Shown: positions 3,251 through 52,200, counted from the stretch's first letter. The stretch: 64,000 nt of DNA from Mytilus trossulus (GCF_036588685.1 NC_086382.1:44144001-44208000), one strand, 5' to 3'. Translations and numbers: made by a program. Notes: generated from the sequence alone by a model not told the origin.

Positions 3251-4825
3251 TATATCAACCATTAATATATATAGCTATCATAAGTTATTAAACTAAGCCT
3301 CACAGAAAGGAAACAGTCTTAGTTAAATTTTGGTCAGGGTACAAAAATGTCCAAATAGTTTGATTTTAAAAACAAAAAACAAACCATCGAAGTCTTGGTG
3401 TTTTTTTATTTGAAGCGAGTCAACTATTGTTCAAATTCCACATGACAATTTATTATTTTTTAAATAAGACGTAGATAGAAGGACGAAAAGTAAAACAAAG
3501 GTAGTTTTTTTTTAATTTGCCTTACATAAAAGATTTTCATGTGATGTCGTAAGTCGTTGATGTTTTGCTATTACAGTCATAATGGTTTATACTTTTGAAA
3601 GATTTTGCGTTTCGAGCCAAAGGTTTTAAAGAAACTGAAACTGTAGACTTTGAAATACTTTACATGAAAAATAATGTACATGATATATGTTTTTAAGTCT
3701 GATTATTACTAAGGTTCAAATGTAGAAAATTATGGATTAAACCTGGTTTTAAAGCGCTAACCCTCTCACTTTGATGACATTCTCGTCAAATTCTGTTATA
3801 TTTACAATGATGCGTTAACTAAACAGACACAATAAATAAAATAGTCAAAATATGGGAACAGCAGTTAAAACAACTCTTAAAGAAAATTTAAATTAACAAA
3901 TTAAAGCGAATGAAAAAATAACAATTTTAGTATACCGCTGTTCAGAAGTCATAAATCGATTTTGAAAAAATTAAAACCGGATAGCAAAATGAAACTGAGG
4001 GAAACACATCCACTATAAGAGAAAAACAAAGAAACAACATCATCACTGAAGTGATGCAAACAACATAAGACAATGCAATATACATAGAAATGAACTTTTA
4101 GAAAACAACCGCCATATTCTTGACTTGAAACAGATCATGTTTAGAAAAATGGAACTTGAACCTAGTATTGTGGCTGGCCAAACCTCGTATTTTTTGGCAA
4201 TGTTCAATATACCGCTAAAATAATAACATTACATGAAAGAAATACAGTACACATCAATGCAAAAACCCTCAGGACAGGGAAATGCATAAATTAATAATAT
4301 AATAGTACATTTCGACATGTTAACTACAAAATATAAACGCAAATATACATAGAGAATCATCAAAGCACTATAACCTATTTGATCAACGTGCTCTGTGATT
4401 ATTATATATCATTTCAACGAGCTAGTCAACATCGACAAAAAAACCGAACATTTTTTCCTCGCGATCAACAATCATTGGCGGAAATATCATTTATCAAAAA
4501 TACGTTACATCATCGTAATAAATATAATTATACGTGCACACAGGACTTCATTTAGTATCAATACATGCACTGGTTCAATGATTTTGATATGAAAGAGGCA
4601 AAAGATACAAAAGAGACATTTAATTTTATAGGTCGAAAATAAACTTGCAACGCCATGACACAAAAAGAAAAGGACCAGCAGACAAATAATAGTATAAAAA
4701 CACAACATACAAAACTAAAAAATGAGCAACAAGATCCCCTGCCAAAACAAACAAATCTAAATAACATGCAACTCATGTCATATAACTTTAACAATGTATT
4801 GCTGATATCATTGTGTTATTTAGAG

Positions 4826-7800
4826 ATGGCACAAGTGTTAGCAGAACCTGGTGACGTTAGACATGGGTTTTCTTATAATACTTCATTCAACCGTGACTTT
4901 AGACGCATTACTGGAATAGCAGCTACCAGAAACGGGAATATTCTGTTGTGTGACTATGATAATAAGAATCTTATTTTAGTTGATTCATCAGGACATTTGT
5001 TAAAGAATCTTTATGTAGACAGTGAGCCATATGATTTGACTATTACAAGTCAAAATATAGGATTCATCACTCTCCCCAATACCAGATCTCTTTTACAAAT
5101 AGATCCTGAAAGAATGGTGATACTCTTTAAGGCAACATGTGAGGATCTACACACTAATGCGTTGTGTGTATCAGCCATCTCTAATAGAGGAGAAGATGTA
5201 ATTTTAAATTTTGCATGTTTGCTTGGCATTAAAAGACATGGTTCATTTTACGCAATCCCCTTCTTTAAAGGATGTGACGAAGAAATGTAAGTATTTATTT
5301 ACAAAACGTATGGTATATGCAAACACTTGTTTAGAATGCTCCAAGTATACATTCACGAATCCTGTAGATGTACATGACATTCCCTAAACATTGATAAGCT
5401 CAGTATAAACTAGTATAAAAACGTGCCGTTTACGAAAGTCTGTACAGTGTGAACAAACACAAACCTAACAGTTTAAATGCGACAAAGAGACGTTACCTGC
5501 TTAAACAAAGAAGTCATCGTTAGAGTGTTTAAATTATCACATGCATGTGTCATAGCTTCTAGTTTGCAGTCGAAATAAAAATAGAACTATGAATCAGACC
5601 TACTAGTAGTCAGAACTTATTGAAAGGAATATCAATTATATGGTCATTTTAATAATTAACTACTTGCTAAATTATAGGTAGTAAAAATCTTAAGGATTTC
5701 CTTATCCTAGGATTAGATTACTTTAGCCGTATTTAGCACAAGTTATGGAAATAGGGTCCTCAATAATCTTCAACTATATAGTTTTTGGCTTTCTAACTAT
5801 TTTGATCCGCGCGTCATGTGTGCATCTTATAAAGATGAAACGCGCGTCTTGCGTATCAGATTATAAGCCGGATGCCATTGATAACTACTACTAAATCAAA
5901 AATTCATTAATATATAAAGAGATGTAAACACTCATTGAAATGTGGGTTTTTATCAATAAGTATGAAAGTGAAATGCAAGAATTTGTCAAGATGCTAAATG
6001 AGTCGATGTCATGATTATCTATAATTCTACTCCATTGTGTCACATTTTCGAATTTATCATCGGAAAATCAGTTTATCAATCATTATTCAAATTGAGGATT
6101 GCTACACCAGTTTTTAAGAATATAGTTCCGAAAATGATGTTTTACATTATAGACATGTTGCAATTTTCCATTAGTATCTTAAATCCCAGCTGACAGATAT
6201 GAGAAGACTATTTTGAGGATTTTTTTAAAATACGTTTAATATGTAGTAAGTCATGCAACCAGGCTCTGTTTAAAGCTTTTGGATATCACATTTTAAAATT
6301 ACAAAACAAAAGAGTTATGTTGTGTAGCCTTCGTGACATATGTTTACTCTATTTTTGCTTGATAGAAATTGGATGGAACTTATGTAAAAAAAAAAACGAA
6401 TGTAATAAAATTAAAACACGTGTTCCTAAATTAAAGTATCTGTGTTTGTGCTGTATTTTTGTTTCAATATTTCATTTTATTTGAATTGATATAATCTCAA
6501 TCATAAAATTGATATTTAACCTTTTTATTGAACTAGAGTTGTGATTGTAAAAACTTAATATTGTAACCACATATCTTTTATTGCTGTAATGGAAACAAAA
6601 TGTCAGAAAAGTTGTAAAGAGGACAATGTGCAAAGATTCAACGAACCGAAATATCAACCATTTGGAGTGAAACCATTTTTATATACTGTGGATTCATTTA
6701 TTTTCGTGGGTATCAATTTTCGTGGTTTGAGGAAAATTTACATATTCGTGGATATTTAATTTCGTGGTTTTGGCAAAGTCTACACTCATTCCTTTAGAAA
6801 ATTTGTTATTCGTTGAAAGTTTGAATTCGTGGTTCTCCTATACCCATGAAATCCACGAAAATTGGTATCCAACGAATATTAATGAATCCACAGTATCCAT
6901 TAAGGGGAATCATATCAATAAAATTGTCGATAAAAAGGTTTTTTGTTTTTGTTGACATAATTTTGTCTTTGTCTGTTCATGTAAATTATTTTATAGAAAT
7001 GTAGGTTCGCCTTCATCATTAATGAAGATAATCGAGACGAACAACATATAGTAAAATTGCAAAAGTAAAGGCCTGCTACAAATAATAATACCGAACACGA
7101 TCTATAAACATGATAAATGAACAAGGAATTTTTACCTGATTATGAGAATACCATACAGTTGTATATCACAATTTATTGTTAATTAATTATAAATCAAATC
7201 ATGAATTCCTGCCGAAACATGGATTCAATCCAAATGTGACTCCAATAAAAAAAAATCAAAGCACTGTAAGCGCTGTAGGCAGTTAACCAAAAACCAAGGC
7301 ATATTTATAAAAACTGTGGCAATGTTGCTTCAATTTTTTTTAAAGATTTTTTAAAAAGAACAAACATTAAACAGTCATATATTGTACATTTATGTTTATT
7401 TAATGAATTAATCATTGAGGCAAATCATACCCATAGCCAGGGGGTTCGGACAAACCCCCCTTAAAAACAAATAAGCACTATTAAAGTCAATGTTCTGTTG
7501 AATTGTGACTGTTAAAGTCGAGTTTTTGAGTCCCACATTCCCCCCTTGGAAATTCCTGGCTACGGGCCTGAAATAATTCATATTTTGTCAAAGATTTTAA
7601 AAACAACACATATATCAAGTATATTTTTTTCATGGTCATGAGTCTGCGGTGGTACAAGTTTGCAATGATTGCAGTTCTTCTAGTTGATAGTTAACGTTAG
7701 TATTGGTTGACTGTAAGTAGTTCAAATTGACTTTAGTACGAGCTTGAAAAAGTATGAATAGATTTGCTTCCCTGGAAAGAAATCTGAGTTTGTGCTCATC

Positions 7801-10800: not shown

Positions 10801-12034
10801 GAGGCACCCGTCGTGTTGTTCATGTTATAACAAATCCGGTAAATAGTACAATTTGGTAGGTCACATTTATGAAAGGGAAGGGATTTGTAGTTAAACATAA
10901 GGAACATATCCAATATCATCTGTAAAACGGTTATATATTCCATAACGGTCAACCAACTCGTGATGGCGTTTGTAAAATTTAAGAACGGGTGATTTCAACT
11001 TCACCATGATGTAGATCTTTTGGTGTAATAGCTACCTAGTTTACCTTGTCTTCTTATTTTAAACACATTAACTTACCCTGGAAAGTCAATTGTGGTCAAA
11101 ACTGGTCATTTTGTATTTTATATGCAGCACTGAAACAGTAATTTGTATCGTATAGTCAGCTTTTTAGATATAGCCACTGGAGTAAGTACAGAACTGTTCA
11201 TAAAATACGCATGCAGTCTATTATAATCTATTCTGTATATGTTCATGACGTTTAGACTGTTCAGTTATTTATAAATACACCTGGAAATCATACTGCATTA
11301 ATAAAAAAAACTACTGCATATTTCTGCATTGACTGCAAATGGATGATTTGAACAGAACTGAATTGTCTCATGTGCGATTCAAGTTGGTTAACTAACTAGT
11401 CTAGTATGAACTCACTCAAACAAATGGGGGAAAATCTTTACCGCAGTTTAAGTAAGAAATATCAAAGGGGTTTCTTTTCTCTCTGTCAACGTTCAAATTA
11501 TCTTTATAACCGACATTCAGATCTCATATATATATATTTATAATATATCTTTTTTAAAGTAATTTCAGAAAACTCACAGACGTCATAGGCGAGCCAGGTC
11601 CGCTAGCTTACCTGAAATACCCTTTTCCTGTTCAATCCCGTGTTGTTAAATTCCATGCACTTGATGAAAAATCATTCTTCACATGCAAAGGCGGTCAAAA
11701 CTATATAACGTACAGTCAACAGAACATATATCATGGAAATATTATTATTGACACCATGGAAACACCTTCTGACATATGTAATGACGATTATCAACACATT
11801 TACATCAGTGCACAAGGATCGAATAACATACACAGATTGAAAAAGGAAGGGAAAGAAGTATATGACACGAGAGCCCATATATTTAAGGGAAAAGATTGGA
11901 AAGTATTAGACATGCCATTGGACTCCAAACACGGTATCAAAGAACCAGTTGCCATGTGCTTCAACCAAAACTATAGTAAATTTTACGTTGTCAATGAATG
12001 GGGGAAATCAGTATTAGTCTTTGATGTTATTTGA
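4826..12034 (+). CDS. Two-coding-exon gene (4826-5286, 11569-12034; 308 aa) encoding a stand-alone NHL-like beta-propeller resembling the C-terminal domain of bivalve TRIM-like proteins
   Basis: Acceptor ttatttag|agATG at 4823/4824; donor AT|gtaagt at 5286/5287 (phase 2); acceptor aatttcag|A at 11568/11569 restores the frame into ORF 11756-12034. Total 927 nt, no internal stop. Blade-like motifs: ITGIAATRNGNILLCDYDNKNLILVD, PYDLTIT, PSDICNDDYQHIYISAQGSNNIHRL, PVAMCFNQNYSKFYVVN. Confidence 0.8.
6686..6893. mobile_element. ~208-bp MITE (TA TSD); degenerate second copy ~18795-19003
   Basis: ta|CTGTGGATTCATT...AATGAATCCACAG|ta with internal ttcgtgg repeats. Confidence 0.8.
7805..8685. repeat. 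~120-bp minisatellite, about 7-8 diverged copies, in the intron of the propeller gene
   Basis: Recurring acaggaggggt.gggtgacc...ccctatatttcatttgatt...ccatacatgaatatatatggttt.gggtgggatctcgactgtttccaagtt at ~120-bp spacing. Confidence 0.8.
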
Positions 12035-16225: not shown

Positions 16226-16674
16226 CTATGCTATTTTTTCCCTCCACATTAAAAATAGTCGTTCCATTTTGTTCTTAAAACTGGGAAAGTTAACACTTCT
16301 GGTGTCCTCGATGTAATTTACCGACTGAATGGTGCACATATCAACTGACATTTCCTCACCGTCAATAATAAAGGGAATTATTCGGTCCCTTTTCTTTGGG
16401 TCATCTAAAGATTGTATTATATTAGCCTGTTTTCCAAACAGCATCAAATTATCCATAGACATATGTCGAGAATGATAGACAATAACAAGTCTACAATTTA
16501 AGAGGAGACTTGCTAATCCATCGAGGACGGGTGTGCCTGGTGTAATTATATCATCCGGTAAACCAATTGCAAGGTTTGGTACATTGACTTGTTCCAGCAA
16601 ATTTTTGTGGCAAAGTCTTGCAGCCATTTCATCTTCTGAAGCATGTAGGAGTACTGCATCAAACCACTGTTCTC
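16226..16674 (-). CDS. Gene A terminal exon: TIR domain (TICAM/TRIF-TRAM-like)
   Basis: Box1-like FDAVLLHASEDE, BB-loop ITPG, betaC CRLVIVYHS, betaD RIIPF, terminal F..KM.RL; acceptor tgtcttttaaag|GA. Confidence 0.88.
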
Positions 16675-19600
16675 CTTTAAAAGACAAATAATCAACTTAA
16701 CTTTCAATTGAACAAATGCATCTGCGTACAAGCTTTGATACACTCAACATGTGATTCTACATGCATTGTCTTCACTTTGCTCTGTTGTGTTGCATTTTTT
16801 TTGTGTACAATATTATTCTGTTGATCTTTTTTTTAATAGATATAAGAAGATGTGGTGTGAGTGCACATCAAAGTCACAATGTGTACTATAAAATATCAAC
16901 TGAAATTACTTAACACAATTAATTAGTTTCTAGTATCCCTCATGTCTCTAACAGTTTCGCCTATATATCAAGTTCACTGTACTTACTTTGATACAATTGT
17001 GTTGCATTGTGTATCTGTATATAATATAGACATCATATTAAAACAGAAAATTAATAAACACAAGGAAAGCTAGTACGAACCTTTGGTATTATTTTTTTAA
17101 GTAAACTACTGCTTGGGTTTTCAAAGCTTTAAATATCATTTTTACAAAATATTGTTATTTTGATAAGTTTTGTATTTGTTTTTTTTCAAATCTCATTTCA
17201 CAAAAATAAATTACCTCGGCGGCATAACGTGTTAACAGTAATGGTCAAGGAAAGAGAACTTTAATACTTGTCCTAAGTCAGGAATCTGATGTACAGTAGT
17301 TGTCGTTTGTTTATGTAATATATACGTGTTTCTCGTTTCTCGTTTTGTTTATATAGATTAGACCGTTAGTTTTCCCGTTTGAATGGTTTTACAATAGTAA
17401 TTTTGGGGCCCTTTATAGCTTGTTGTTCGGTGTGAGCCAAGGCTCCGTATTGAAGGCCGTACTTTAACCTATAATAGTTTACTTTTTAAATTGTTATTTG
17501 GATGGAGAGTTGTCTCAGTGGCACTCACACCACATCTTCCTATATCTATTTAATAACATTAATCACTTTGTGTACATACCGACAGAACCCCGGTCTTCTT
17601 CCAAATCATTACCGTCTGAAAACAGTGCGAACATCTTTTAAACAAGAATGTTTTGTTTGGTGCTAAGTTTGTTTACATGTGTAATAAAATCTAAATAACA
17701 TACATTTTAGTACTGACATTGGGTTGTCACCATTGTACAAAAGCTTTGCATCCGTATGGTATTATTTTTAATGAGTTTCATTATTGCAAAAATCGAATCA
17801 TCATATAAATATTAATCCAAAAAGCAACAGCTTTTAAAAGCATATTCCTACATTTGATTATGAAACTTTTGAAATGTTTAAGATGATATCTTTTTTTATA
17901 TATTTTCTATTAATAATAAGAGTCTGGAAGTGGAACCTTTTTTGCTATATTCTATACATTTGTTTGTATGACTCTTTCTTTATCCACATTAAAAAATAAT
18001 GCTTATTCTCTTAAATGTTCATGAAAATTATTTTACCACTAGATTCATTTGTTATTACATGATTTCGTCTTTTGGAACATGGTGCCTTACTGTGATTCAT
18101 ATTTTAATGTCTAATTCTTTAGATTATCATAGCTATTTTATTCCTTTCCACTATTCTATATTCTATTCTTTTTACTCACTTTTCATTTCTTTCATTCTTT
18201 TTTTATCAATCATTCCAAATTTTGTAAATCCCGGGATGTCGGTTTATTTTTATTAAACGGGGATATATTTTCCAGACTTAAAATATTTTGTTTTACTTTT
18301 CACTCATATTTCTACATATATCTTTAAACTGGGGTCAAAATGCCGTATAAATAAAACAATCGTAACTTACTCAAACGTGCGTCTTCTACTGAATTATCTT
18401 GCATCAGTTGAGTACTGGTACGACTAGGTAAGTCTGATTGTGACAATGAAGCAGAGGTAGTTGTCAAGCCTAAATAAAATATGTTTTACTTGAAAACAAA
18501 TCTAATATTTACTACAGAACAATAACGTAAATGTACATTTATGACGTATAAACGCATGACATGATAGTCTTCAAATCGAATTAAATTTTTCGTTTCTATA
18601 GAAAATAATCTCTTTATCTTAATGAATTACTTAAGGGTATAATACTTTGCCGATATAATAAGAGAATAAGTTACAAAGGCCTTTGTGCAGTTGGGTTTTA
18701 TTTGTTCCATGTTACCAAAACAATACGTTGCCGATCTAATTAGATAATCAGTCACATATTACAAACGCCTTTCTTCGATTGGTTTGATTAGTTCAGTGTG
18801 GAGTCATTTATTTTCTTGGGTACCAATTTTCGTGAATAAAGGAAAACTTAATTGTTCGTGGATATTTAATTTCGTGGTTTTGCTGATGTCTGCATACAAG
18901 CGCATAGAGAATTTATTATTCGTTGAACATTTAATTTCGTGGTTCATCTGCAGCCACGAAATCCACGAAAATTGGTATCCAACGAATAATAATGAATTCG
19001 TAGTAAATATCTCTGTACCGAAGATTTCGCTAAAATAGGGTATCGGCGAGAAGATAAATTTGGCGCATAAATGTTCATTAGTTCTTCCTATTGTTCGCAG
19101 AAATGTCCTGTGAACCCTTATCACTATCGTTTAAATGTTACACAATCCTTTACATGTACACTTACAAGAGTCTGGAGGTGGAACCTTTATTTCTGTATCC
19201 TCTTCCTTTTTGTGTATGATTCTTTCTTTATCTATAAAAATAATGATTATTCTCTTAAATTATCATAAAAACATTTTTACCATTAGATTCATTTGTTATT
19301 ACATGATTTCTTCTTTCTGAACATGGTGCCTTTCTGTGAGTACTTTATTGTCTTGATTTAGTTTTTCTTAGCTATTAATAGACCACTTTCGAGTTCATCC
19401 GTCACCGGAAAAAACTCGTCAATTATACGCGCCTTTATCATCGTCATTTGTGCGTTTAGGGGCGTCGTCACTTCCTTCCAATGTTGAGCGAGTGGTTGGA
19501 AAACTATAATTCTATATTGTACGAATTATTCGGCAAATTGAATTCTCAAAATTGACAATCAACACTGCTGTCATTAGGGAAATGTCAGTAAGTACCTACA

Positions 19601-21232
19601 GAGCAACCATTATTTCTAGTTTATCCTGCACAAAGACGATCACTAAGACGCTTGATGAACGTAAATAGTGCAGGGATACAGGCGAGCCCCTCTATCTGGT
19701 AAATGACCTCATAAAGGCGTGTATAATTGACGAGTTTTTGCCGGTGACGGATGAACTCGAAAGGGGTCTATTCCTTTGCAACTCCGGAGTATCGTTTTTT
19801 TGTTTTTTTTTCATTTTACTGGAATATATTTTCCGGACGTGATATTTTTATTTTCTTTTCACTCATATTTCTACATATATCTTTAAATTGTGGTTAAAAT
19901 GCCGTATAGATATCGTAGCTTTCTCAAACGTGTTTATTCTTCTGAATTCCCGGGTATGAGTATGAGTTGAACACTGGTACGATTTGGTGAGTCGGATTGT
20001 AACAATGAAGCAGGGGTAGTTGTCAAGCCTAAATAAAATATGCTTTACTTGAAAAAATACTTTACATACTACAGTACAATTAGTTTCATGTCCATGCAGT
20101 ACGTATACACGCATGTCATGGTAGTCTTCAAATTGAATGAAATTTTACGTTTCTATAAAAAAAAAATATTACAAAATTGCGAATGTTCATGTGTTCAAAT
20201 CAACAGTATTAATGGGTCAAACTGGGTTGGATTGTTTTATATAAAAAAATATGTGGTATATTTGCCAATGAGACAACTGTAAACTAGAGACCATTAACAA
20301 CTATAGGTCACCGTACGGCCTTCAACAATGAGCAAAGCCCATATCACATAGTCAGCTATTAAAGGATCCAATAAGACAATGTAAAACAATTCAAACGAGA
20401 AAACTAACGGCCTTATTTATATAAAATGAAAAGAAAGAAAAACAAATATGTAACACATAAACAAACGACAACCTCTGAATTACAAGCTCCTGACTTGGGA
20501 TAGGCACATACATAAATATTGTGGCGGAGTTAAACATTGTATTGATATGTTAAAGTTTAACACGACTTTCGACATTATTGTGCAGTATCGTGGCTGTCTT
20601 TTTTCTATTGGTAGATAATTGGCATAATTGCTCGGAGAGACCAAAAGTTACTGATTTTTGGTAGGAAACCTGACAAGCATAGTCCTTAATTTAAGATTGG
20701 AGTTAAGCGCACCTGCCATGTACGTGCATGATTCGAACACACAACTACTGTGTTGACAGGCTAGTGAAACGGCAGATTGTTACTTGGACCACTTCTAAAC
20801 CGAGTCCACTAAACCAGGAAGGAGGTACTATTCAAACCAATCACTCATTAACGGTACCAATGTGTCTTCAACAGATCTGTATTTAGACAATATCTTTTCA
20901 GAGATGCTAAAATCCGAAATATTCAAAGAACTTTGATGAATAGAAAAGTAGAGCCAAAGGCAAAATGGATATTTCAGTATTGTTTAGATGTGCAAAAGAG
21001 TCCCGATCTCCCTCCTTCAACCTCACCGCCCCCCCCCCCCCCCCCCCCCAAACTCCCAACCCATTCTTCCTCACCCTAAAAAAAAGGAAATATATCGAAG
21101 GCATTCCTTATATATGTACAGCTTGTAATTATATATAAAAAAAATACCTGTTTGTCGTTTAGTCCAGTAATACCCAAACATCCAACAAACTGCAGCTGTT
21201 CCGAAAACAAGGCATACATCTTTTCCACTCAT
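16226..21232 (-). CDS. Gene A: signal-anchor + S/T-rich linker + TICAM-like TIR protein, 222 aa; exons 21232-21148, 18469-18371, 17615-17580, 16674-16226
   Basis: All introns GT-AG and phase 1; 85+99+36+449=669 nt open. Protein begins MSGKDVCLVFGTAAVCWMFGYYWTKRQT-GLTTTSASLSQSDLPSRTSTQLMQDNSVEDARL-NGNDLEEDRGSV-GEQWFDAVLLHASEDEMAA... Architecture mirrors gene B. Confidence 0.8.
17580..17615 (-). CDS. Gene A 36-nt microexon (NGNDLEEDRGSV)
   Basis: ttttcag|...|gtatgt, phase 1-1; peptide motif matches the two gene B microexons. Confidence 0.75.
18371..18469 (-). CDS. Gene A 99-nt Ser/Thr-rich linker exon
   Basis: ttttatttag|...|gtaagt, phase 1-1, open frame; a dead paralogous copy lies at 19924-20028. 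Confidence 0.75.
19381..19768. mobile_element. MITE with ~70-bp TIRs, probable TA TSD
   Basis: GACCACTTTCGAGTTCATCCGTCACCGG... / ...CCGGTGACGGATGAACTCGAAAGGGGTC; absent from the paralogous empty site at ~18131-18150. Confidence 0.82.
19924..20028 (-). pseudogene. Pseudo-exon: duplicate of the gene A 99-nt exon
   Basis: Clearly similar to 18371-18469 including flanks, but has an in-frame TAA (..NSEE*), a 6-nt duplication and a donor changed from GTAAGT to GAAAGC. Confidence 0.75.
21148..21232 (-). CDS. Gene A first coding exon: short hydrophobic signal-anchor followed by basic residues
   Basis: gtttgcag|gctgaacATG...ACAG|gtattt; 85 coding nt, MSGKDVCLVFGTAAVCWMFGYYWTKRQT; same length and phase as the gene B first coding exon. 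Confidence 0.75.
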
Positions 21233-37508: not shown

Positions 37509-37960
37509 TTATCGCAATGTCTTTCTCCAAGAGTCTACTAATTTTTCAAACTTCTCTTTGAAAGTTGGAAACTGACGATGATTTGTGTCATTAACATATT
37601 TTAAATGTATAATTGGGGATAATTCCACTGATATTTTTTCTTCATTCACTTGCAATGGGATTATTCTTTTTGCTTTCTGAGGATCTTCCAGTGACTGAAT
37701 GACATTTATATCTTTCCCATAACCTGCAACTGTATCTGAATCAAGGCTTTTAGTTTGATAGATAAAAACTAGTCTGCATGAGTCTAAGATAGAACTTAGT
37801 CCAGGCAGGAGTTGACTTCCAGGTTCAAACAAATCTTCCGGTAGTGCAACTTGTAGATTTGATATATTTGTAAAATTATTCATTAAGAATGTTTTACACT
37901 TAGTTGCTTCATTCTGGTCTTTTTTCCCGTGTAATAATAAAATGTCATAGCGAAAGATAT
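37509..37960 (-). CDS. Gene B terminal exon: TIR domain (TICAM-like)
   Basis: Acceptor tttatcgttgcag|AT; YDILLLHGKKDQNEA, BB-loop LFEPG, SCRLVFIYQT, KRIIPL. Confidence 0.88.
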
Positions 37961-40900: not shown

Positions 40901-43900
40901 GAGTATCAAAAATTCCAAAAAAGTTGTGCCAAATCATATGAAAATCAAAATACCATTCTGAAAAGTAGTATACTTAGTCTTACAAAAAGCTACCAGAAGT
41001 TGAAAACGCTATTCTAACTAATAGACCATCCTTTATATATCTCTGACTACAATATAAATCAGTACACTTCTAAACAATTTAGGGTGCAGAGGTCATAGGT
41101 AGAACTTGACCTTGTGTACTGAAACATATAAAACTACCAAACAAGAAAACCCCAGACTAAATATGCGACTCGTTATCTTTGCATTGTTGTCGTCATGAAA
41201 ATCGTGATTGAAACTACAGACATGGGTAAAGGGAGCGAGGTGTAACATAATCAATTGAGTATAATTGAATGAGCCACTTTTATACCTAGCGCTCTGTCTT
41301 CCTCCACATCAAGTGGACCTGTTTAATAGAAAAAACACATATTGTGATTATTAATAAAATTGAGAATGGAAATGGGGAATGTGTCAAAGAGACAACAACC
41401 CGACCAAAATAAAAAAACACAACAGCAGAAGGTCACCAACAGGTCTTCAATGTAGCGAGAAATTCCCGCACCCGGAGGCGTCCTTCAGCTGGCCCCTAAA
41501 CAAATATATACTAGTTCAGTGATAATGAACGCCATACTAATTTCCAAATTGTACACAAGAAACTAAAATTTAAATATCACTTGTTTAAATGATAATTATG
41601 TCGAACTAATGTTTTAGGATGTTATTCAAAAGCAAAGATAAAGTTTTTTGTCCTAGTCAGACATGACAAAACATGCATGACAGAAGATATTTATTTAGTC
41701 AGCTCTGAATTTGACCTAGTTCTATTCAGACTGTGTTCCCTTAATTATCGTCTGTTTGTACATGCTTTATGATGAACTATTCAAAATACTAGTAGCATTG
41801 ATTATACAAAAATGAACAATAATATATCGATAAGGTCGAACAGAAGTTGTTTAGTATCAAAATATCAATAAAGGAAAATCTCTTTGATCAATCTGCACGG
41901 TCATATGCATGTATGGTAATACATTCGATGCCATTAAAACTTAAAAACTAGATATGACATGTCACTGATAACAAAGTAAATTCGGTTAAGAGAAGATCAT
42001 CAGCTGAATTGATGTAAAACATAAAACACACATAAAACAGTTAACAGAATGAACTTACATGAAGTCAATTAAAATATTTCCCGCCCAAATCCATTAGAAA
42101 ATGGAGATGCAAGATACCAAAAGGATGTTGAAACTATTATACGTTTCAGACAAACGGACATCGATAAGGGAGATAAAAACTAAAAATTACGAAAGTCTAC
42201 AAAAACACAACACAGACAAGCGTTAAATACATGTTCGTTAGTTGATTTGTACAACACCGCTTTGATTTGATCAATGTGGACCATTTGCTTTCATTAACCG
42301 TTGAATGTTCCTGATTATCTATGATCATTTTCATTATGATTAGTATTATAAGCAAGAATATATCGCTTCAAATAAAAAAAAAATGAAATGTCCTTGGAAT
42401 TACATTACGAAAGTAGAAAATTTAATGTGACCCATTTATACCTATAGGTCTGTCTTCTTCTATATCATCTTGACCTGTACAACAGAAAAAACAATAAATG
42501 TTACGTTTTCAAATAATTTAAGATTGGGTTAACAGTTTTGGGTCATTATTCCAAAACTATGTTCCAAATAAGGTATTGTATTGTCAGTCGATTTTTCAAT
42601 AGTTATTTTTGTAGCTATTTGGTGTGATCTAAGGCTCCGTGTTGAAGACCGTACTTTTTCCTATATTGGTTTACTTTTACAATTTAAGAGCTGGATGGAG
42701 ATGTATCTTATTGACACCCATTCTACGTCTTTATATTTCTATTTGCAAAATACGTAATAAATGCAAATTCGATACAATTAAACTGAATATGCAGTCTATA
42801 TACACTTTGTAGAAATTGCACATGAAATACGAATTGAAATCACTCTTGATACGAATATAAAGCATATACGCAGATAAAAAAGATGAACCTTTTATCGAAA
42901 AAATATAGAAAGATATACTTACTGCTTTGAGCTAAAGGTGTGTTCGATTCCACAGAAAAAATATTTGCATCGATATTTTAATATATATGTCTGTACATAT
43001 CATGTATATTAGTAAATTAACACATATATCAAGCTTCGTCATGTGCATTAGTACTCCCCACATGTGCTTTATCCTGTTATAATCCATAGTATTACAGAAT
43101 AATTTCACGTTTTGTTCAATCAATAATTTGCAATTCAAATTATAACTATCATTTTTCTCAAACAAATATCTAGTTTTGAAGTTCAAATCATCACTTTTTG
43201 GTCAGTGACAGTATATGCCATAGTAATTGTGTATTATTCAGTGATTGAAACAAAATTTTACTTAGACTATACTAAAAGATATTGACAGAACAATTGTGAA
43301 AAATTATCAACAAAAACAAAAAGAAACAGATGAACTTGTACCTACTCGATGATATACTACATTAGGTACTTTTTTGATAGTTGTCTCGTAGACCTTTTAG
43401 TCGGTTCTTCTAATAATGTAAATAAATTAAATGGGATTTCATTTTCACTTTCAATTAATGTACACACTTTGTTGCGGTATTTTTCTACGTTGATTGGATA
43501 TACTTAATATTAAATGTCTTCCTTTAAATGCCACTTTATATGACAGAAATATTATGAAATATTATAATTTTTCAAAAAAGGAACATAACAGTATTTGTTC
43601 CTTATAGCATAAAGGGTTTCGAAAATTTGTTCAATTAGAAACAGGTAGTATAGTTTTGTTTATTCAAGAGGAACTTCAGTTAGAGGGATCAATTAAACAC
43701 TGCATCTGTCTAAACCGTAGTAAATCAAATATAAAATCAAACCTCCTTAAATTTTAAGAATTATATCTCATATAATGTTAGCAAGGCTCTTTTAATTCTG
43801 TTTTTTAAATTTGTATTCTCTCAATTTTTGTGTTCAATAATTTAAAGATACATGATAATAAATGTTGTTTTTTTTCACGGTATCTTATTCGAACGGTGCT

Positions 43901-46900
43901 CTAATAAGATACCGTGAAATTTTCATCGGTCAGCGCCTACCGACAATATTCAAAGTTATGCGGCTTAATAGTACGAACCTCCTTATACAATAAGCTTCAA
44001 TGACTAAAGTGTGTTCTCGGCAATATTGATACATATGTAGAGACGAGAAAACAAACAAATTGTATTACAACAGTGACGATCTATAATTTATAGATGTATG
44101 TCTGTTTTTGAAATAATTATCTTCATTAAAGACAAATGTTATTGTTATTATACATGCTACATCACTAATTTATACATTGATGCAATTCGTGTTTACTGTA
44201 GGCATGTCAATCTAATATATTTAACTGTTTAACTGATGCGTTATTACGCTAAGAAGAATAGGTTTTACCTTCAACTGGAATTTCTTCATGAGTACTTGAT
44301 TCTATCTTTCTGCCTATCCGTGGAGTTTCTTCTGTAAGACTGTCAATCTAAAACAAATTAAAAACAATTACAGGAAAATACAATACGAAATTAATCTGTC
44401 TTACGTTATCACAAACATTGAAAACAGCATGTATAAATGAAATGCGCTCGAAGGGCTTTTCTGGATGTATTTTCATTCGGAACGCTCCCAGCCGTATATT
44501 TGAACGCCAAGGATGTATAAAACAGAAACTGTTGAAGAGCTTTACAATGAAAAAATGACATAAGATAATAGCCAACTCATTCTAAAGATAATTTTGTCCG
44601 GGGAAGTACAAACCTTTATTTAAAAGATTCATTCATATCAAAAAGGGGTTCTTTTTTTCAATGTCTAGTTAATTATAAACACAGTCTTTTTTTCAAAGTG
44701 CTTTAATCTTTCATATAATTTTCAAAATGTAGATTCAACTCGTATGTAAACACGGACAATAAAGGGTCTGATATGCATTCAGTAAAAAACATATCTATTG
44801 TCTGAGACTGTATGTTCCATTCAGATATCTTTTGGGTTTTTTTTTGTTTTGTTTTGTTTAATTTATACATTGGCGGCACTCTTTAATCGTATCTACTTCA
44901 TCATTATAATTACATCCATTTATTTTTTTGCGTAGAGACCATTCTATACACGTACGACATATGGTATTTCGTTTCGTCAGATATATGTTCCTGTTTATTG
45001 GAACAGTCGATTCAAACTAGCAAATATCAATCATGTGCCATTTAAATGTTGTTTTTCATGAAATTTCAAGGTGATAAGATCTAAATCCTTTTTATTTTTT
45101 TTTGTTGTTCAGACTTTTTCTTAAAGTACGATATTATACGTTCAAAAATGTTACTGGGAAAACTCAATAATAAAACAATGTTTATCAGTCCTTTAAACTA
45201 TGTGCTGTACCTTCAATGATATTTTATAAACTTCGTCTTTCATAAATTGTTCTAAGCTGTCGCATTTCTCTTTTAGTAATTTTAGCTGGGATTCAAGACT
45301 GGCGTTGTAGTGGATGTTCAATTTTCTTGATCTTTCATGTATATTTGCACCTTCTTTCTTCAAGGATGTCATGATTTCTTCGAATTTTCTTTCTAACGCT
45401 TTTTTGTCATCTGTCTCAGCTTTGCCTAGTTCATTTTGATGTGTTTGTATTACTTCTAATTTATCTGTAACGGTCTTCTCGTATTTGGTATGTTCTTCTA
45501 GTTTATCCGCTATGAGGCTAGTTTGTTTTGCGTCTTGATATTGCTTTTCTTCCATTCGTTTTATATGCGCATCCAGTGCTTGTAATTGTTTCAATTGGGC
45601 TATGATATAAAACAAGAAAAGATCATACCTACGCTAACGTCAAAAGGTAAGCTAGCTATAACACAAGGTTTAATTAACCATTTTCTGCATATAAAAACGC
45701 CTGAACCAAGTCAGAAAAATGACATTTATTGTCCCTTCGTTTGATATAAATAAACTCATCATAGGTTCCAAAGACTCAATTTTATATATACACCAGAAGC
45801 TCGCTTCGTCTACAAAAGACTCATCAGTGACGCTCGAATCCAAAAATGATTAAAATACAAACCCAATTTAAGTACGAAGTTGAAGAGCATTTAGATGTGT
45901 TTGAGCGTTTGATTTATATTAGGGTCTTACCGTTTTCCTCCGAGTTCAGTTTTTTGTGATTTTACTTTTGTCTTAAAAGAGAACTATTTCGATGTACTAA
46001 GTACTTATTTTTTTTAAATAAATTTATTTTGTTTAATTGGTTGATTTATCTTGTCCTTCATTCATATAAAAAAAATTAAGGTGATTTGGTAAGATTATTA
46101 ATAAGATAACTATAAAAAAAATCTGATATAAATCATAAGATCCTGTGACGGCTCTTGAATTTTACGATTTAGGATTCTAACAAAACCCTTATCTTTTTTT
46201 CTGTTCTGTCAACACCAACTAATAATCTTCCAACTTCTATATTTGGAAAGTTATGTACTGCTAAGACAATACCAAAGGATCCTGAGAGGTCTTTATAACA
46301 AGGAAAGTACGGAGCGTTGTAAGATCTATACTAGTAATACGTGGACATATGATCTGTATTTCAATCAGATGAGTCAGTCGATATGGAGCATTATTGATCA
46401 ATCAACCGAAACTATTCAACAATGCAATAAACGTATTACTATGGAACACCACAGCTGTCTTATGTGGAACTCTGATATTACTTTATGTTGTTTTATTATT
46501 ACTTAATGATATTTGTCTTTCCTTAATATGGTTTTGACATTACGTAATGGTGTTTAAATATAACTCAATATATAATAGCCATTGTTTGATGCTATTTCGA
46601 TATTACACGATCATATTGTTTTGTATTGACTTCATATAGTTTTGTCATTACTCGTTGTGGTTTCACCATTATTTAAAATGGTTGTGTCATTAGTCAATGT
46701 GGTTTCAACATTACTTGATGTGTATGTGACTTAACGTAATGTAGTTGTTTCATTACATGATTTTTTCCGAATTGGTCACGTTGTTTTACCTCATCAAGTA
46801 ATGGGATAACCACATCAAAGAATGACAGGACCACATCTAAGAATGACAAGACCACATCAAATAATGACACAAACATATCAAGAAGTGTAAAAGCGTCAAA

Positions 46901-49900
46901 TTTTGAAACATCATTACGTAATGTTAAAACCATATAAAGAATAGACAAATCATCATAACGAAATAAAAAAAAAAATCAGGTAATGAAACAACTACATTGC
47001 GTTCAGTCACATACACATCAAGTAATGTTGAAACCACATTGACTAATGACACAACCATATCAAATAGTGGTGAAACCACATCGAGTAATGACAAAACTAT
47101 ATTAAGTCAATACGAAACCATGTCGTGTAATATCGAAATAGCATTAAGTAATTTTTATTCCATATTGAGTTATATAAAAACATCATTACGTAATGTCAAA
47201 ACCATATTAAGTAAAGACAAAATATCATTAAGTAATAATAAAACAGCATAAAGCAATATCCGAGTTCCACATAAGACAGCTGTGGCGTTCCATATATTCC
47301 ATACAATTAAAAGTGGATAATTATACAAGATGTCTTACACACTGCTTACATTCAGTGTAGCATAAGTTATCCTCGTGCTAATTTTTAAGAAATATGCCAA
47401 ATTGTATCATAAACTATAAATAAGTAGCGTTGTGTACCCTTTTACATGCATTTAGCAAGTATAAAGAGAAATGCATTGTTGTTTTTTTTTCTCTAAGACG
47501 AGATTTCGACATTTTCATGTGATATTGTTGCGTAAAAAGTAAAATCACAAAAATAATGAACTCAGAGGAAAATCAAATCGGAAAGTCCCTAGTCACATGG
47601 CAAAATCAAATGAAAAAACGCATCAAACACGAATGGACAACTTCATATTCCTGACTTGGTACAGGCATTTTCAAATGTAAAACGTGGTGGACACCTAATT
47701 AAAAACACTTTTATTGCTTTGCGTCTCTGACGTCAGAAAATCTATACGTCACATAGGAATAAATTTTGTCGTTCGATATTTACAAAACAATTTTTAAATT
47801 TTACATGGTCAATATCAATGTTGGCATACAGGGTTTATAAATCTAAATGTGATAGAATAAATTTCAGAAATAGACCGAGATTTAAAATAGTCTAAAAGTT
47901 CTATAGAATAAATAAGAATCCACAAATTGTTAATTACACTACGCGATTAATTAGTTTTGACGTTTTTTGTTCAACGTATTTTCTAATATATAATAGAAGT
48001 ATTATAACATTATGACTTACTATACAACAATAACACACTGGCGAGATAGTGTAGATAAATCAATGGTCTTTATATAATCTATGAGAACAACCAAGATTGC
48101 AATACTTTTTCGAATATTTAGACATCCACATATGTTTTATTCTACTTAGTGGGAGATATTATGGACATAATTGTGCAAATCGTGATACAAGCATGAAATT
48201 TGGTATAAAGGTTAACTAAATGATACTTATACAAAATCCGCTGCTGGCCAGAAAAAAAACCCAAATTTTTCAAAATGGCCACCACACATTTTTGAAATGG
48301 CGTCATTTCAAATTGGCAATACTTCGTTAATACTTTGAAAGGTGTGATATATGTAAAATTCAAAGTTAGATTCGATAAAAAGTAAATGACAGTTCCTTAA
48401 TTACGACAAGACAATACATTACTGAAACTAAAGGTGACTTCCGGTTTCAAAATGCTGTCAAAATGGTCAAAAATTTCAATTTTTGTACTTTCAAGCAACT
48501 TCACATGGGATATAAACATGATAAATCATTAAAAAATTGTTTTAGGTATAATCCAATGTAAGTTATGATAAAACATTGAAAACAATTTCTAAGTACGACA
48601 AACAACAAATAAATGAAGAAAATAGTGATTTCCGGTTCCAAAATGGAGGCAGATACGGAAAAAATATTTTTATAATTTCCATCAACTTAACAAGAGATAA
48701 CACTCTTTTGTTAAGTTTAAATGCCTAGTTTTGTTAGAAAGACAGGTTGCTTATCTTATAATTATCTGACAGCAGTCAATAAAAAAACCCGTACAAGGAA
48801 GAAAAGACAGGTAGCATGTACAGTTACCAACAGTTACACAGCTGGATTTTTTCGCCTCCGCATTTCAAAAGTTCCCAACAGGAGGATGCAACTTAAACGG
48901 CAGCCGAAGAAGTAATTTTAGGGTTTTCAACTGTCATCGATATTTTTTTCTTTCATACAAACCCAGTGTTCACGAGTCAGTACATGTACCTGTCAAATAC
49001 ATAAATCAGGCTGAGCCCAAACTTGTCCTCCTTGATATGCTTCTTTATGGATGTGCTCCGAAAAAAAAACTCTTGAAGGCGGAACTATATCTCGATTCCA
49101 CTGATTCCTGGGTAACAATTAATATCGTGCCTCGTTGACAGCAAATGTTGACGTTGTTCTGTCATACTTTACTCATACATGATGCAAACAAATGATTCTA
49201 TGATGTCCATGTATGTGTCGTCTTTATACTTCAGCAAAAAAACGCCCCATACATCTTGAAATACTTCACATGTCATCCAAACTGACCTATTCCCTTTCCC
49301 ACGAAAATCCGACAAAGTTTCACATCTACTGAATAAATGAACGAAAGAAAGAGTAGCTACACGAGGACCAAACGCATTTGATATGTCATGTACATGAAAC
49401 CATCAAAAGTCTTCATTCCTGCCAAAACCAATCCACAGTTTGTTCCACCGTATTTTTGTAGTGCTGCTATTCTGAATTCTTCTACATCTGTGTCGGTGAT
49501 ACCTCAAATTACCGTCTTACAACAATTTTCATAATCATACCGAACATGGACAAACATTCTTATATCTGCTTCTCCATGCTTAAAAGGGATAGCGGGAAAG
49601 TATCATTATTAGTCTCTAAAGAAGCAATTATGTCGGCAAGAAACTTGAAAAATTTAGAAAACATATAACACAATGTGTACTCTTGAATACTTATCAATGC
49701 AAGATTTTATGTAAGGCAGTTTGCCACATTTGCAAAATCATCAAATATTGTTGCCTAACAAGGTGGCCTGGAATTAACCATTGCTGCCCTTCAACGATAA
49801 ATGCGTCAGAATTTGGATATGCAAATTGCAAAATGTTTTAAGTTTATCCATTTGCACCGATTTTATATCACTGTTTAAAATGACATCTTTAGACAAACGA

Positions 49901-52200
49901 GGAGCACTTTGTCTTTATGGATTAAAAGATATTCCAAGTCAATATGTCCACTGCGACAAAAAATACAAGTCTAGAAAATACATCGCAATCACTCTTAAGG
50001 TTCTCTAGCTTTGTTTTTTGACAAAATTTTACAATTTTGTTTTACAGACATAATAGAAATTTGTTCTTTTTTATCTGGTTATAAGAAACAGGTTCTCTTT
50101 TGTTTTTCATTTGCTTCTAACGATCTTCGTATTGTTTGCCTTTGATCTTTTGAAAGAAATCCTTTTGTGTTTATTAAGTCGTTCATCTGTTATAGAATGC
50201 CTCAAACCACTAGATCTTGCAAGTTCATCTGATAGTCTACTGACTTCTTGTCCAGCTACCATCAATACGTCTAAATGGGGTTTTCTTTTAAACATATGAC
50301 AACAACATCGCCCTTCACAATTGCATTATTCTGGGATTTATTTTTGCTTTATATGGACTGCATGTGCAAAATCTGACTCATAAAATGAGCATACTACCAC
50401 ATTTCCAAGAAGTTCTTATTCTATAATTGAACGCCAGGAATTAAACTGTGGTCGAGATGACTATATTTTCTTACACCAGTCTACCAAATCATTGAACGTC
50501 ACAGAGTCCTGGCGTGATCATAATTTCTGTATTTAGCTTTCTTTAGCCAATATTTATCATTCAATCTAACACACAGAGTTATCTGATGCGCGTGTCTAGT
50601 CCTAGATACATTTGAACATATACATACAAAGAATATGCCGTTCTCGGTGTTGCAATATGGGTTTTTGTGAGAATATATGTCCATCTATTATCACGTAATA
50701 AATCACCCAGAATTTTATAACAAGTCATTTCAATGTGCAATCCACCTCACATGACGATTAACTTATCTTCTCTGGACAAATCAGGCCATTCCCACTGAAT
50801 AACCATGATTACTAAAAGTGGCTGATCTGCCGTTACTATTGATGTTTCTCTCGTATAAACCACATTTTCCGCCTTATCCATCGAATACTTGATCTTTGCA
50901 ACTGAATAGGCTTGTTGCTAAAAAGTGGCATCATAGATTTTACACTTACTTGAACAGCTCTACAAGAGCCTTCGTTTGAGTAATGATATGAACTGCGATT
51001 TATACCAGTTTGCCCTGGTAGTACATACAAATCGCTCATTATGTCTATAAATAGGTTGCACATGCGCAAAATTGTCAAATCATATTTATCATAACCTTGG
51101 AAAATGTTATCAAACCAAATCATGATATAATTGAAAAGCCCAAAACATTTATTTTATAGTAAATAGTTACAATGTTTTTTAATGAATTTTGTTACATTTC
51201 GCGCATGAGCAAACCCTTCAGATGTCAAACATTCATGTCTCGTGAATTCTTACATGTAAGGAAGGCAGCTACCAAACCTGATAGCTGTTTTTCACTTAAA
51301 GAAGGTAAACGAAAAATTTCAAGAAAAAAATCAGTATTTTCTAGCTGAAAAAAACTACCATTTTAGAAAAAGGCCGTGGCCATCTTGAAAAAAATAATTT
51401 TTTTAATGACCAGCAGTTGTTCCTTAAAAAGTATATAATAATGATGCTTTGTGGAAATATCTATGATTGTATCATCATTTGCACAATTCCCTTGATTTTG
51501 CCTGCTAATATCTTCCACTAACTTTGCAACTAATGATTTCAATGAATACCTGTTATACAAACAATCTAACTCCTCGTATGTGTTGCTCAATGAAATATCC
51601 AATAAGATTTGCCGAAATCCCTATCTTACCAAGATACATCGGCTAACATGAACGAGAATTTATTACAAATACAGATATCCATACCTCTTTGCTGTAGTGC
51701 CTGGACAAACAGCTTCATATGGGGGTCTCATTGGAGGGTTCTGATCCCGGATCCCGCTTACTGTTTTGTCAGATTCCCGTATCCTGCTTACACTATGTAA
51801 GTAAGCAATTATCTTTTTTTTTGTAATTTCCTGGGTCCCGCCAGACTTCATTTCCCGTTTTCAAGCACAATAATTTGTATTTCACGTGTCCCGCTTACAA
51901 AAAATCGGCAATCCCGCGTGACGCTAAGACCCCAATGAGACCCACTCATATTTGAGGTTTTGAAATAAGTAAGAGATGAATGCAGTGTGCATACCACAAA
52001 CGTCTCATTGGCTGATGGATACTTCAGAAAAAATCAGTAAGGGTTACTTACGATAATAATGCAACGGCTTTGGTGATATGCTTAATTCTTGGAACAAATG
52101 TTATAATATCCTTACCCGACTGTACTCTGAACAGTTTATACGAAATTCCACATCCAAGTAATACGCCGCCTAACACACAAACAGAATCCCTTATATTCAT
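37509..52200 (-). CDS. Gene B: signal-anchor + coiled coil + acidic linker + TICAM-like TIR protein, 356 aa; exons 52200-52116, 45599-45211, 44347-44269, 42474-42442, 41318-41286, 37960-37509
   Basis: All GT-AG; intron phases 1,0,1,1,1 are consistent; 85+389+79+33+33+452=1071 nt open. TIR exon is an obvious paralogue of gene A (LLLHGKKDQ, FEPG, CRLVFIY, IQSLEDP.K..RIIP, FPTFKEK). Confidence 0.78.
38122..39150. mobile_element. Tc1/pogo-like non-autonomous element
   Basis: ta|CAGTAAAACCTGTGTAAACCGG ... CCGGTTTACTCAGATTTGACTG|ta. Confidence 0.7.
40097..40825 (-). mobile_element. Tandem hammerhead retrozyme, family 2 (351-nt unit, 2 copies), inserted in a family-1 copy (~40030-40935)
   Basis: aagattaacggtacc recurs at 40101, 40452 and 40803; minus-strand gcatca-CTGAAGA-gac..gtc-GAAA-tgcgca-TC at ~40125-40170 and ~40476-40521. 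Confidence 0.82.
41286..41318 (-). CDS. Gene B 33-nt microexon (GPLDVEEDRAL)
   Basis: attaaacag|...|gtataa, phase 1-1; homologous with flanks to 42442-42474. Confidence 0.72.
   Translation of the reverse strand, partial: VHLMWRKTER
42442..42474 (-). CDS. Gene B 33-nt microexon (GQDDIEEDRPI)
   Basis: ttgtacag|...|gtataa, phase 1-1. Confidence 0.72.
44269..44347 (-). CDS. Gene B 79-nt linker exon (IDSLTEETPRIGRKIESSTHEEIPVE)
   Basis: ttgttttag|...GAAG|gtaaaa; phase 0 to 1, exactly bridging the coiled-coil exon and the microexons. Confidence 0.75.
45211..45599 (-). CDS. Gene B coiled-coil exon (~130 aa)
   Basis: Inside ORF 45193-45615; E/K/Q/L-rich, no Pro, heptad-like; acceptor ttttatatcatag|CC, donor AAG|gtacag. 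Confidence 0.8.
46440..47294. mobile_element. Foldback element: ~310-bp inverted arms built from ~21-bp subrepeats
   Basis: tatggaacaccacagctgtcttatgtggaactc... / ...gagttccacataagacagctgtggcgttccata; internal accacatc.a.gaatgaca repeats. Confidence 0.8.
48147..51520 (-). mobile_element. Academ (XPG-type) DNA transposon remnant in an intron of gene B
   Basis: TIRs TAGTGGGAGATATT.../...AATATCTTCCACTA with long degenerate extension, 3-bp TSD ACT. Minus-strand remnants: HGEADIRMFVH (~49545-49580), TDTDV, FVHLFSRCET...FRGK (XPG/PIN-like), and a Cys-rich C-terminus (LLKCG...CVTVGNCTC...LPCT, ~48790-48870). Confidence 0.8.
51721..51947. mobile_element. Short MITE
   Basis: TIR gggtctcattgg / ccaatgagaccc. 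Confidence 0.6.
52116..52200 (-). CDS. Gene B first coding exon: signal-anchor-like segment
   Basis: tttttgcaacag|tgcccaaccATG...TCGG|gtaagg; MNIRDSVCVLGGVLLGCGISYKLFRVQS; 85 coding nt, phase 1, same as gene A. Confidence 0.7.

Follow-up and report, generated by a model that had tools for sequence, protein, structure and literature searches.

The window analysed here, a 64,000-nucleotide stretch of Mytilus trossulus DNA (GCF_036588685.1 NC_086382.1:44144001-44208000), contains two minus-strand genes, A and B, whose protein products end in a TIR domain, and it raises the question of whether a short acidic unit, D-[LIV]-E-E-D-R, encoded by very small exons just before that domain, has been kept by selection and what it might do in the protein. 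We have addressed this question by examining the exons and their transcripts, the conservation of the unit within Mytilus and in distant homologues, and the readings that could account for it.

Two TIR genes and their short linker exons

Gene B, modelled with six exons, yields a translation that does not differ at any residue from RefSeq XP_063404461.1 (P0001), an uncharacterised M. trossulus protein of 356 aa, and the five-exon model of gene A is an open 244-aa protein which matches M. galloprovincialis and M. edulis records. An earlier note on this DNA had described phase-1 exons of 33, 33 and 36 nt in these genes. All three are present at the positions it gave, each bounded by an AG acceptor and a GT donor and in phase 1-1 (Table 1), and the motif units are located, as it had also claimed, directly upstream of the TIR exon in both genes. 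We take exons of 33-36 nt to be microexons only by the wider (51 nt) definition of that term. Six-frame translation of the window detects EEDR at three sites, all corresponding to these exons, while a search of the genome with a combined acceptor and motif pattern gave ten matches, compared with five for the reversed control, three of the ten being these exons. The other seven are at control level, with a donor at the matching distance in 0/7. DKEEDG at 15457 was considered as a further exon and ruled out, as it has no AG acceptor and is situated downstream of gene A.

Table 1. Exons and broken exon copies of genes A and B, with positions counted from the first nucleotide of the window
Feature	Position	Strand	Length and phase	Description
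Gene B coding exon 1	52116..52200	-	85 nt	short hydrophobic segment then basic residues, predicted signal-anchor
Gene B exon 2	45211..45599	-		charged helical stalk, coiled-coil-like
Gene B exon 3	44269..44347	-		acidic linker
Gene B dead linker exon	43347..43424 (approximate)	-		no AG acceptor, frameshift, TAA
Gene B microexon B1	42442..42474	-	33 nt, phase 1-1	QDDIEEDRPI; predicted P1 = Asp residue 192
Gene B microexon B2	41286..41318	-	33 nt, phase 1-1	PLDVEEDRAL; predicted P1 = Asp residue 203; within RefSeq model P0001
Gene B TIR exon	37509..37960	-		TRAM/TRIF-like TIR, includes stop
Gene A coding exon 1	21148..21232	-	85 nt	predicted signal-anchor
Gene A type alpha linker exon, broken copy	19924..20028 (approximate)	-		TAA, no GT donor
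Gene A linker exon type beta	19166..19231	-	66 nt, phase 1-1	
Gene A linker exon type alpha	18371..18469	-	99 nt, phase 1-1	
Gene A type beta linker exon, broken copy	17918..17983	-		no AG acceptor, TAG
Gene A microexon	17580..17615	-	36 nt, phase 1-1	GNDLEEDRGSV; predicted P1 = Asp residue 91 of the gene A model
Gene A TIR exon	16226..16674	-		TRAM/TRIF-like TIR, includes stop

B1 and B2 are identical at 15/18 nt in the core and 9/15 nt outside it and have similar flanks; as judged from these sequences, they are a recent duplicate. Their likeness is therefore not an independent sign of selection, which has to be sought in the comparison of A with B and in distant homologues. GAAGAC is present unchanged in all three microexons.

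The linker of both genes consists of exons that are freely gained and lost. Every linker exon after exon 3 in gene B and after exon 1 in gene A is in phase 1-1. In gene A, the alpha and beta exon types were duplicated as a pair (17918-20028) and one copy of each is broken, and the genome can therefore make only the 244-aa form or a shorter one. The linker exon that is dead in gene B is live in other Mytilus orthologues; it is skipped in contigs of sequencing runs X1 and X3, and the orthologous exon is used in contigs of X4 and X5. Among A-type records, each of the other linker exons is absent somewhere, the minimum being anchor, microexon and TIR (P0112, P0113), and the microexon is kept in 12/12 TIR-bearing records (8 in the A cluster plus P0027 and P0111-P0113), which come from few species and are not independent.

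Transcript support was examined in runs X1, X3, X4 and X5, which are RNA only by our guess, as assembled contigs, not reads, over a readable stretch (41580-44780) that covers exon 3 and B1. In contigs of X1 and X3, which derive from one sample, position 44269 is joined to 42474 across a GT..AG intron, connecting exon 3 to B1. An X4 contig (depth ~4) carries a second unit, with the core EVEEDS, directly after a B1-type unit, and no contig skipping a microexon was seen in the four runs over this stretch. Among transcript-sized Logan records, P0006 and P0007 contain the two B units, and P0112 and P0113 the one unit of the A type. The presence of the units in transcripts, whose absence the earlier note would have taken as a refutation, is borne out by the splicing of B1 in the X1/X3 contigs and by the transcript-sized records of relatives.

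Other features of the window were also recorded. In gene B, the join of exon 3 to B1 (44269-44290 and 42466-42474, minus strand) encodes PVEGQD, which fits the TRAF6 consensus; PVEVKE or PVEVLE is present there in some B-type orthologues, and none of these occurs in A-type genes. Intron 1 of gene B contains an inverted repeat of ~330 nt (46440-47294), with arms 90% identical, around a short-period repetitive open frame. On the plus strand, two long exons at 4643-5290 and 11558-12034 belong to a gene of NHL-repeat (beta-propeller) type, with a weak NHL match on the first.

In both proteins an N-terminal hydrophobic segment (mean hydropathy of 1.6-1.8 over 17 residues) is followed by basic residues, from which we infer a predicted membrane anchor that would hold the TIR at the membrane. 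The segment is short and of moderate hydrophobicity, and its C-terminal flank is basic; in this it resembles a mitochondrial outer-membrane signal-anchor, which is our guess as to its type. Pfam matches to the TIR are weak (TIR_2) and below the cut-off, and in a profile search of solved structures the sole TIR matches are human TRAM chains (E 0.004). An AlphaFold2 model built from a 64-row alignment gives a pLDDT of ~97 for the TIR and ~59 for the motif region, which has no secondary structure in the model and is thus predicted to be exposed and unstructured; this model replaced one from an 11-row alignment whose mean pLDDT was 53 and whose fold matches were thioredoxin-like noise. TRAM (9dlg, E 1.4e-6) heads the Foldseek ranking, MyD88 and MAL following at a small distance, and the first Atlas match is TICAM2 at 0.85-0.86, a value at lead level only. 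The BB-loop Pro-Gly is present, as EPG in B and TPG in A, in the same column as PG in the TICAM-like rows.

TRAM is N-myristoylated at Gly2, a feature not found here, since gene B starts with MNI and gene A with MSG, the hydrophobic segment following in each. The N-terminal helical domain and C-terminal RHIM of TRIF are likewise absent, the proteins of 244 and 356 aa ending with the TIR and no such Pfam match being obtained with the two large B exons or the A TIR exon. In a quick tree (88 rows, 156 columns), the Mytilus clade and a TICAM-like clade are placed in one open fork (SH-aLRT 91, long branches). We describe the domain as TRAM-like and take the proteins to act in the manner of TRAM, but do not class them as TICAMs, because Gly2, the TRIF N-terminal domain and RHIM are absent and the quick tree places the two clades in an open fork. 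At the alignment column in helix C which we take to be the NADase catalytic site, the Glu of SARM1-type TIR NADases is replaced by Gly in A and B and by Gln in several homologues, suggesting a scaffold role for the TIR.

At least 13 further TRAM-like TIR exons are present in the genome, at L019-L029 (C3, C4, C6, C13, C14 and C15) and at L001 and L004 (C11), with several clustered on C6. P0052 is identical to the L019 locus and has a weak N-terminal hydrophobic segment, with IETDA 289 residues before the TIR. A repeat with a period of ~1.6 kb, detected as recurring weak matches, extends from L001 7400-10000 to L002 1-5400, upstream of the first C11 paralogue.

Conservation of the motif within Mytilus and in distant homologues

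Comparison of the two genes separates the core from its surroundings. The TIR domains of A and B are identical at 59/146 residues, while alignment of the remaining linker is at shuffle level (score 31 vs a mean of 30). Within the core, 5/6 residues are identical and the sixth is conservative, with synonymously changed codons; where codons differ, the residue or its class is kept (ATA/GTG/TTG, GAA/GAG, AGA/CGG). Taken alone, the A/B core match is no more than suggestive, its probability by chance being 0.01-0.2 depending on the background chosen.

Across 12 Mytilus records 19 units were listed, of which 15 are exact D[LIV]EEDR, with the listing pattern itself having required ED. The four deviant units are all in two-copy genes, each of which retains at least one [DE][ILV]ExD. 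P3 Glu is lost in 2/19 units, both proximal copies (DVKEDR and DVAEDR), and P1 Asp is present in every aligned unit. Copy number is one in A-type genes and two in most B-type genes, and no unit is found in three M. coruscus models (P0003, P0013 and P0026). In M. californianus, isoform X2 is without the distal unit of isoform X1, the only annotated isoform pair differing by one unit. Copy number does vary between one and two, but the proposal that motif dosage is tuned by splicing is weak, given one isoform pair and no skipping contig. The decayed second copies look like redundancy rather than tuned dosage. A further isoform of the M. californianus gene (LOC127724240 isoform X3, P0005) has the TIR common to X1 and X2, differs in anchor and stalk and carries two other DLEEDR units; it represents either a merged annotation or a TIR exon to which two tandem front halves are spliced.

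When 1.84 billion representatives were searched with a profile, 87 matches were obtained, 54 with a locatable TIR start and at least 35 residues before it. Three of these, belonging to the A/B subfamily, were set aside, and the others were divided into 14 with an N-terminal hydrophobic segment (anchored) and 37 without. D-[ILV]-E-x-D occurs at eight sites in 5/14 anchored homologues, against 0.12-0.13 expected, a level reached in 0/500 and 0/5000 shuffles, compared with 1/37 among unanchored homologues (0.51 expected). The eight sites are DIETDS, DVETDE, DLEADQ, DLEEDE, DVEPDC, DVEPDS, DLEVDT and DIEEDS, so that the fourth position can be T, P, V or A in homologues of 20-39% identity and P1' also varies. 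The pattern was fixed after sight of P0036, P0038 and P0049; with these removed, three sites remain in 2/11 (p 0.003). D[ILV]ExD tops all 4-of-5 gapped patterns, an equal top count being obtained in 10/500 shuffles, and TRAF-type, DxxD and reversed patterns show no enrichment in the homologue linkers. Within anchored linkers, D[ILV]E is followed by xD in 8/9 cases and by xE in none.

Further resemblances to the Mytilus arrangement were detected, the motif being doubled also in P0036, P0038 (from Tegillarca granosa) and P0040 and lying 11-14 residues before the TIR in P0038, P0040 and Mytilus. The carriers are spread over four separate groups of the quick tree, and the motif is therefore either old and often lost or arose repeatedly; 9/14 anchored homologues are without it. 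In this genome, sense-strand D[ILV]ExD is absent from the upstream sequence of 13 TIR paralogues, 11 of them more distant (10 kb each) and two of them close paralogues on C11 (~23-26 kb), searches which junction-spanning or farther sites would escape, and P0036, P0040 and P0044 have no close match (best 35-39%).

Combined, these comparisons support the claim that the motif is under selection as a short linear element of which only the core is retained: the core is kept between A and B while the rest of the linker is at shuffle level, and it recurs in distant homologues. DxEEDR, as the core was originally described, is the version seen in Mytilus of a broader motif, D-[ILV]-E-x-D, the fourth and sixth residues varying elsewhere.

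A candidate caspase site and its alternatives

The proposal of a caspase-type site gains from the residues that are kept, P1 Asp, P3 Glu, a hydrophobic P4 and an acidic P5, and from the variation at P2 and P1', and is weakened by Arg at P1', which is uncommon, by the lack of the motif in 9/14 anchored homologues, upstream of the 13 other TIR loci and in the three M. coruscus models, and by the two units without P3 Glu. With moderate confidence, we consider that the motif is likely a caspase site in a predicted disordered linker between the predicted anchor and the TRAM-like TIR, and that a cut would release the TIR and probably end signalling. A caspase is favoured over an acidic patch because an Asp-only P1 is needed by the former and not by the latter. 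P1' is Arg in 18/19 Mytilus units and S or T in 4/8 distant sites, so that a small P1' residue is not the general feature here, whereas G, S, T or A is reported at P1' in >80% of mapped caspase sites (PMC7356051). Human caspase-6 is described as preferring an acidic P5 with V/I at P4 and tolerating Lys at P1' (PMC9977399). Mytilus caspase-8A is reported to activate human caspase-3, and the same account gives bivalves caspase-8 groups and lineage-specific effector caspases, with no direct caspase-6 orthologue (PMC7836458); a reconstructed ancestral effector caspase is reported to accept Asp, Val or Leu at P4 (bioRxiv 10.1101/749143). A specificity profile for any bivalve caspase was not found in the literature.

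In the proposed mechanism, a caspase with a preference for [ILV]ExD and an acidic P5 pocket, such as a caspase-8-like or caspase-6-like bivalve effector, would cut after the second Asp. The site is placed 13-14 residues before the TIR, and a cut in this predicted disordered stretch would free the whole TIR from its membrane anchor. In Mytilus, Arg, a primary, type-1 N-degron residue, would become the first residue of the fragment, which would thereby be destroyed. A duplicated unit would provide a spare cut site, and such duplicates arise easily because all linker exons are in phase 1-1. Judged from the sequences, the N-degron step does not generalise, as Ser or Thr would become N-terminal after a cut at four of the distant sites. 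Caspase fragments whose P1' residue is destabilising and conserved have been documented (PMC6274719, PMC7356051). We infer that the direction would be off rather than on, and the membrane as the site, and by analogy an off-switch is favoured because TRIF and MAVS (Cardif) are reported to be inactivated by caspase cleavage (Rebsamen 2008 as cited in PMC3169542, PMC3466175) and in view of the Arg that a cut would expose in Mytilus. An extended form of this mechanism seems to us unlikely to hold as a whole, namely that, beyond the chordates to which TICAM signalling is commonly restricted, a bivalve family of mitochondrion-anchored TRAM-like TIR adaptors carries a caspase-8-type site as a plug-in microexon, that the Arg N-degron in Mytilus would combine switch and timer in one exon, and that duplication or skipping would set the ease of cutting.

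Alternatively, the motif could act by binding rather than proteolysis, as an acidic peptide that docks either on the surface of the TIR or on a partner protein, or as a COPII di-acidic export signal, an alternative we rate as improbable. DxE is the COPII di-acidic export motif and D-[ILV]-E fits it; an excess of D[ILV]E is confined to the anchored members (9 found, 1.6 expected), the distance to the TIR is fixed in several members, and binding explains Arg at the sixth place more easily than cutting does. However, the whole D[ILV]E excess is contained within D[ILV]ExD (8 vs 0.12); the single D[ILV]E not followed by xD compares with 1.4 expected by chance, D[ILV]ExE is absent, and in the predicted model the motif is not packed against the TIR. 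The TRAF consensus sequences are PxExx[aromatic/acidic] and [PSAT]x[QE]E; the core matches neither, and they occur in 0/14 and 3/14 anchored homologues against 1.1 and 3.5 expected, and the earlier suggestion of TRAF docking is not supported. Kinase docking, suggested with it, does not fit a unit with no conserved Ser/Thr.

It is also conceivable, though distinctly unlikely, that the same caspase site has the opposite effect, the anchor silencing the TIR, the cut freeing it for cytosolic filaments and the N-terminal Arg limiting the life of the signal. By structure, the proteins are matched best by adaptor TIRs that form filaments (TRAM, MyD88 and MAL), and with the TIR as the sole signalling domain the freed piece would be the whole TIR; however, TRAM signalling requires membrane attachment. 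Active caspase fragments carrying N-degrons are known (PMC7356051), whereas the closest precedent, cleavage of TRIF and MAVS by caspases, inactivates, according to a title cited in PMC3169542.

We consider it very unlikely that the units have no protein-level role and simply descend from a single ancestral exon, their likeness being due to recent duplication and to a purine-rich splicing enhancer (GAAGAC) required for definition of the short exon: the shared GAAGAC, the recent B1/B2 duplication, the free death of other linker exons in this genome, the many family members without a unit and a chance of ~0.04-0.2 for a 5/6 match in a short exon at a background identity of 0.39 would be consistent with it, but the changes between codons leave the residue or its class intact, the purine run is interrupted in the homologues of 20-39% identity by T, P, V or A at the fourth position, and the microexon, alone among linker exons, is never skipped in A-type records.

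Relation to known adaptors and caspase substrates

A search of the literature found no publication on this TIR family or motif, and the ecTIR-DC classification or paper supplements may already list the family, though not the motif. Invertebrate orphan TIR and ecTIR-DC proteins are described as TIR-only, with function unknown and an adaptor role hypothesised, and the accounts given in these sources name no anchor-motif-TIR type (PMC6321704, PMC9334734). TICAM signalling is placed in chordates (PMC9334734, PMC9440496). If the caspase reading is true, molluscs, and not chordates alone, shut off a TRAM/TRIF-like adaptor by means of caspases, and mussel TIR signalling is tied to expanded caspases, with natural substrates available for defining caspase specificity. 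An unstudied invertebrate TIR group would also gain a precise handle, one Asp and one fragment.

Among known systems, TRAM/TICAM2 and TRIF/TICAM1 have the closest TIR by profile and fold, with an xILLH-type first strand and the BB-loop Pro-Gly in common. The mussel proteins differ in having a predicted transmembrane anchor in place of a myristoylated Gly2, in having no room for the TRIF N-terminal domain or RHIM, and in an identity of ~18-22%. The membrane-tethered, TIR-only layout is that of TRAM, and the position of the putative cut is that of TRIF, which is reported to be cut by caspases upstream of its TIR, at D281/D289 (PMC3169542, PMC3466175). The likeness of the two TRIF sites to the mussel motif is one of position. 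MAVS consists of a CARD and a C-terminal anchor, unlike the mussel proteins with their TIR and N-terminal anchor. The likeness to MAVS (Cardif) is that of a membrane-anchored innate adaptor which is reported to be inactivated by caspase cleavage (PMC3169542).

With respect to the site itself, Arg at P1' in Mytilus is the feature unlike caspase-6/-8 class sites. P0036 carries IETD, the caspase-8 recognition word, and VETD outright. The acidic P5, V/I/L at P4, P3 Glu and P1 Asp are as described for the caspase-6/-8 class (PMC9977399). Caspase fragments with Arg or other N-degrons are similar in their conserved destabilising P1' (PMC6274719, PMC7356051), with the difference that here this would apply only to some of the distant sites (E, Q, C) and to the A/B group of Mytilus. 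Caspase-cut adaptors, P1' N-degrons and motif-bearing short exons are each known separately, and what is new is their combination and the family in which it occurs.
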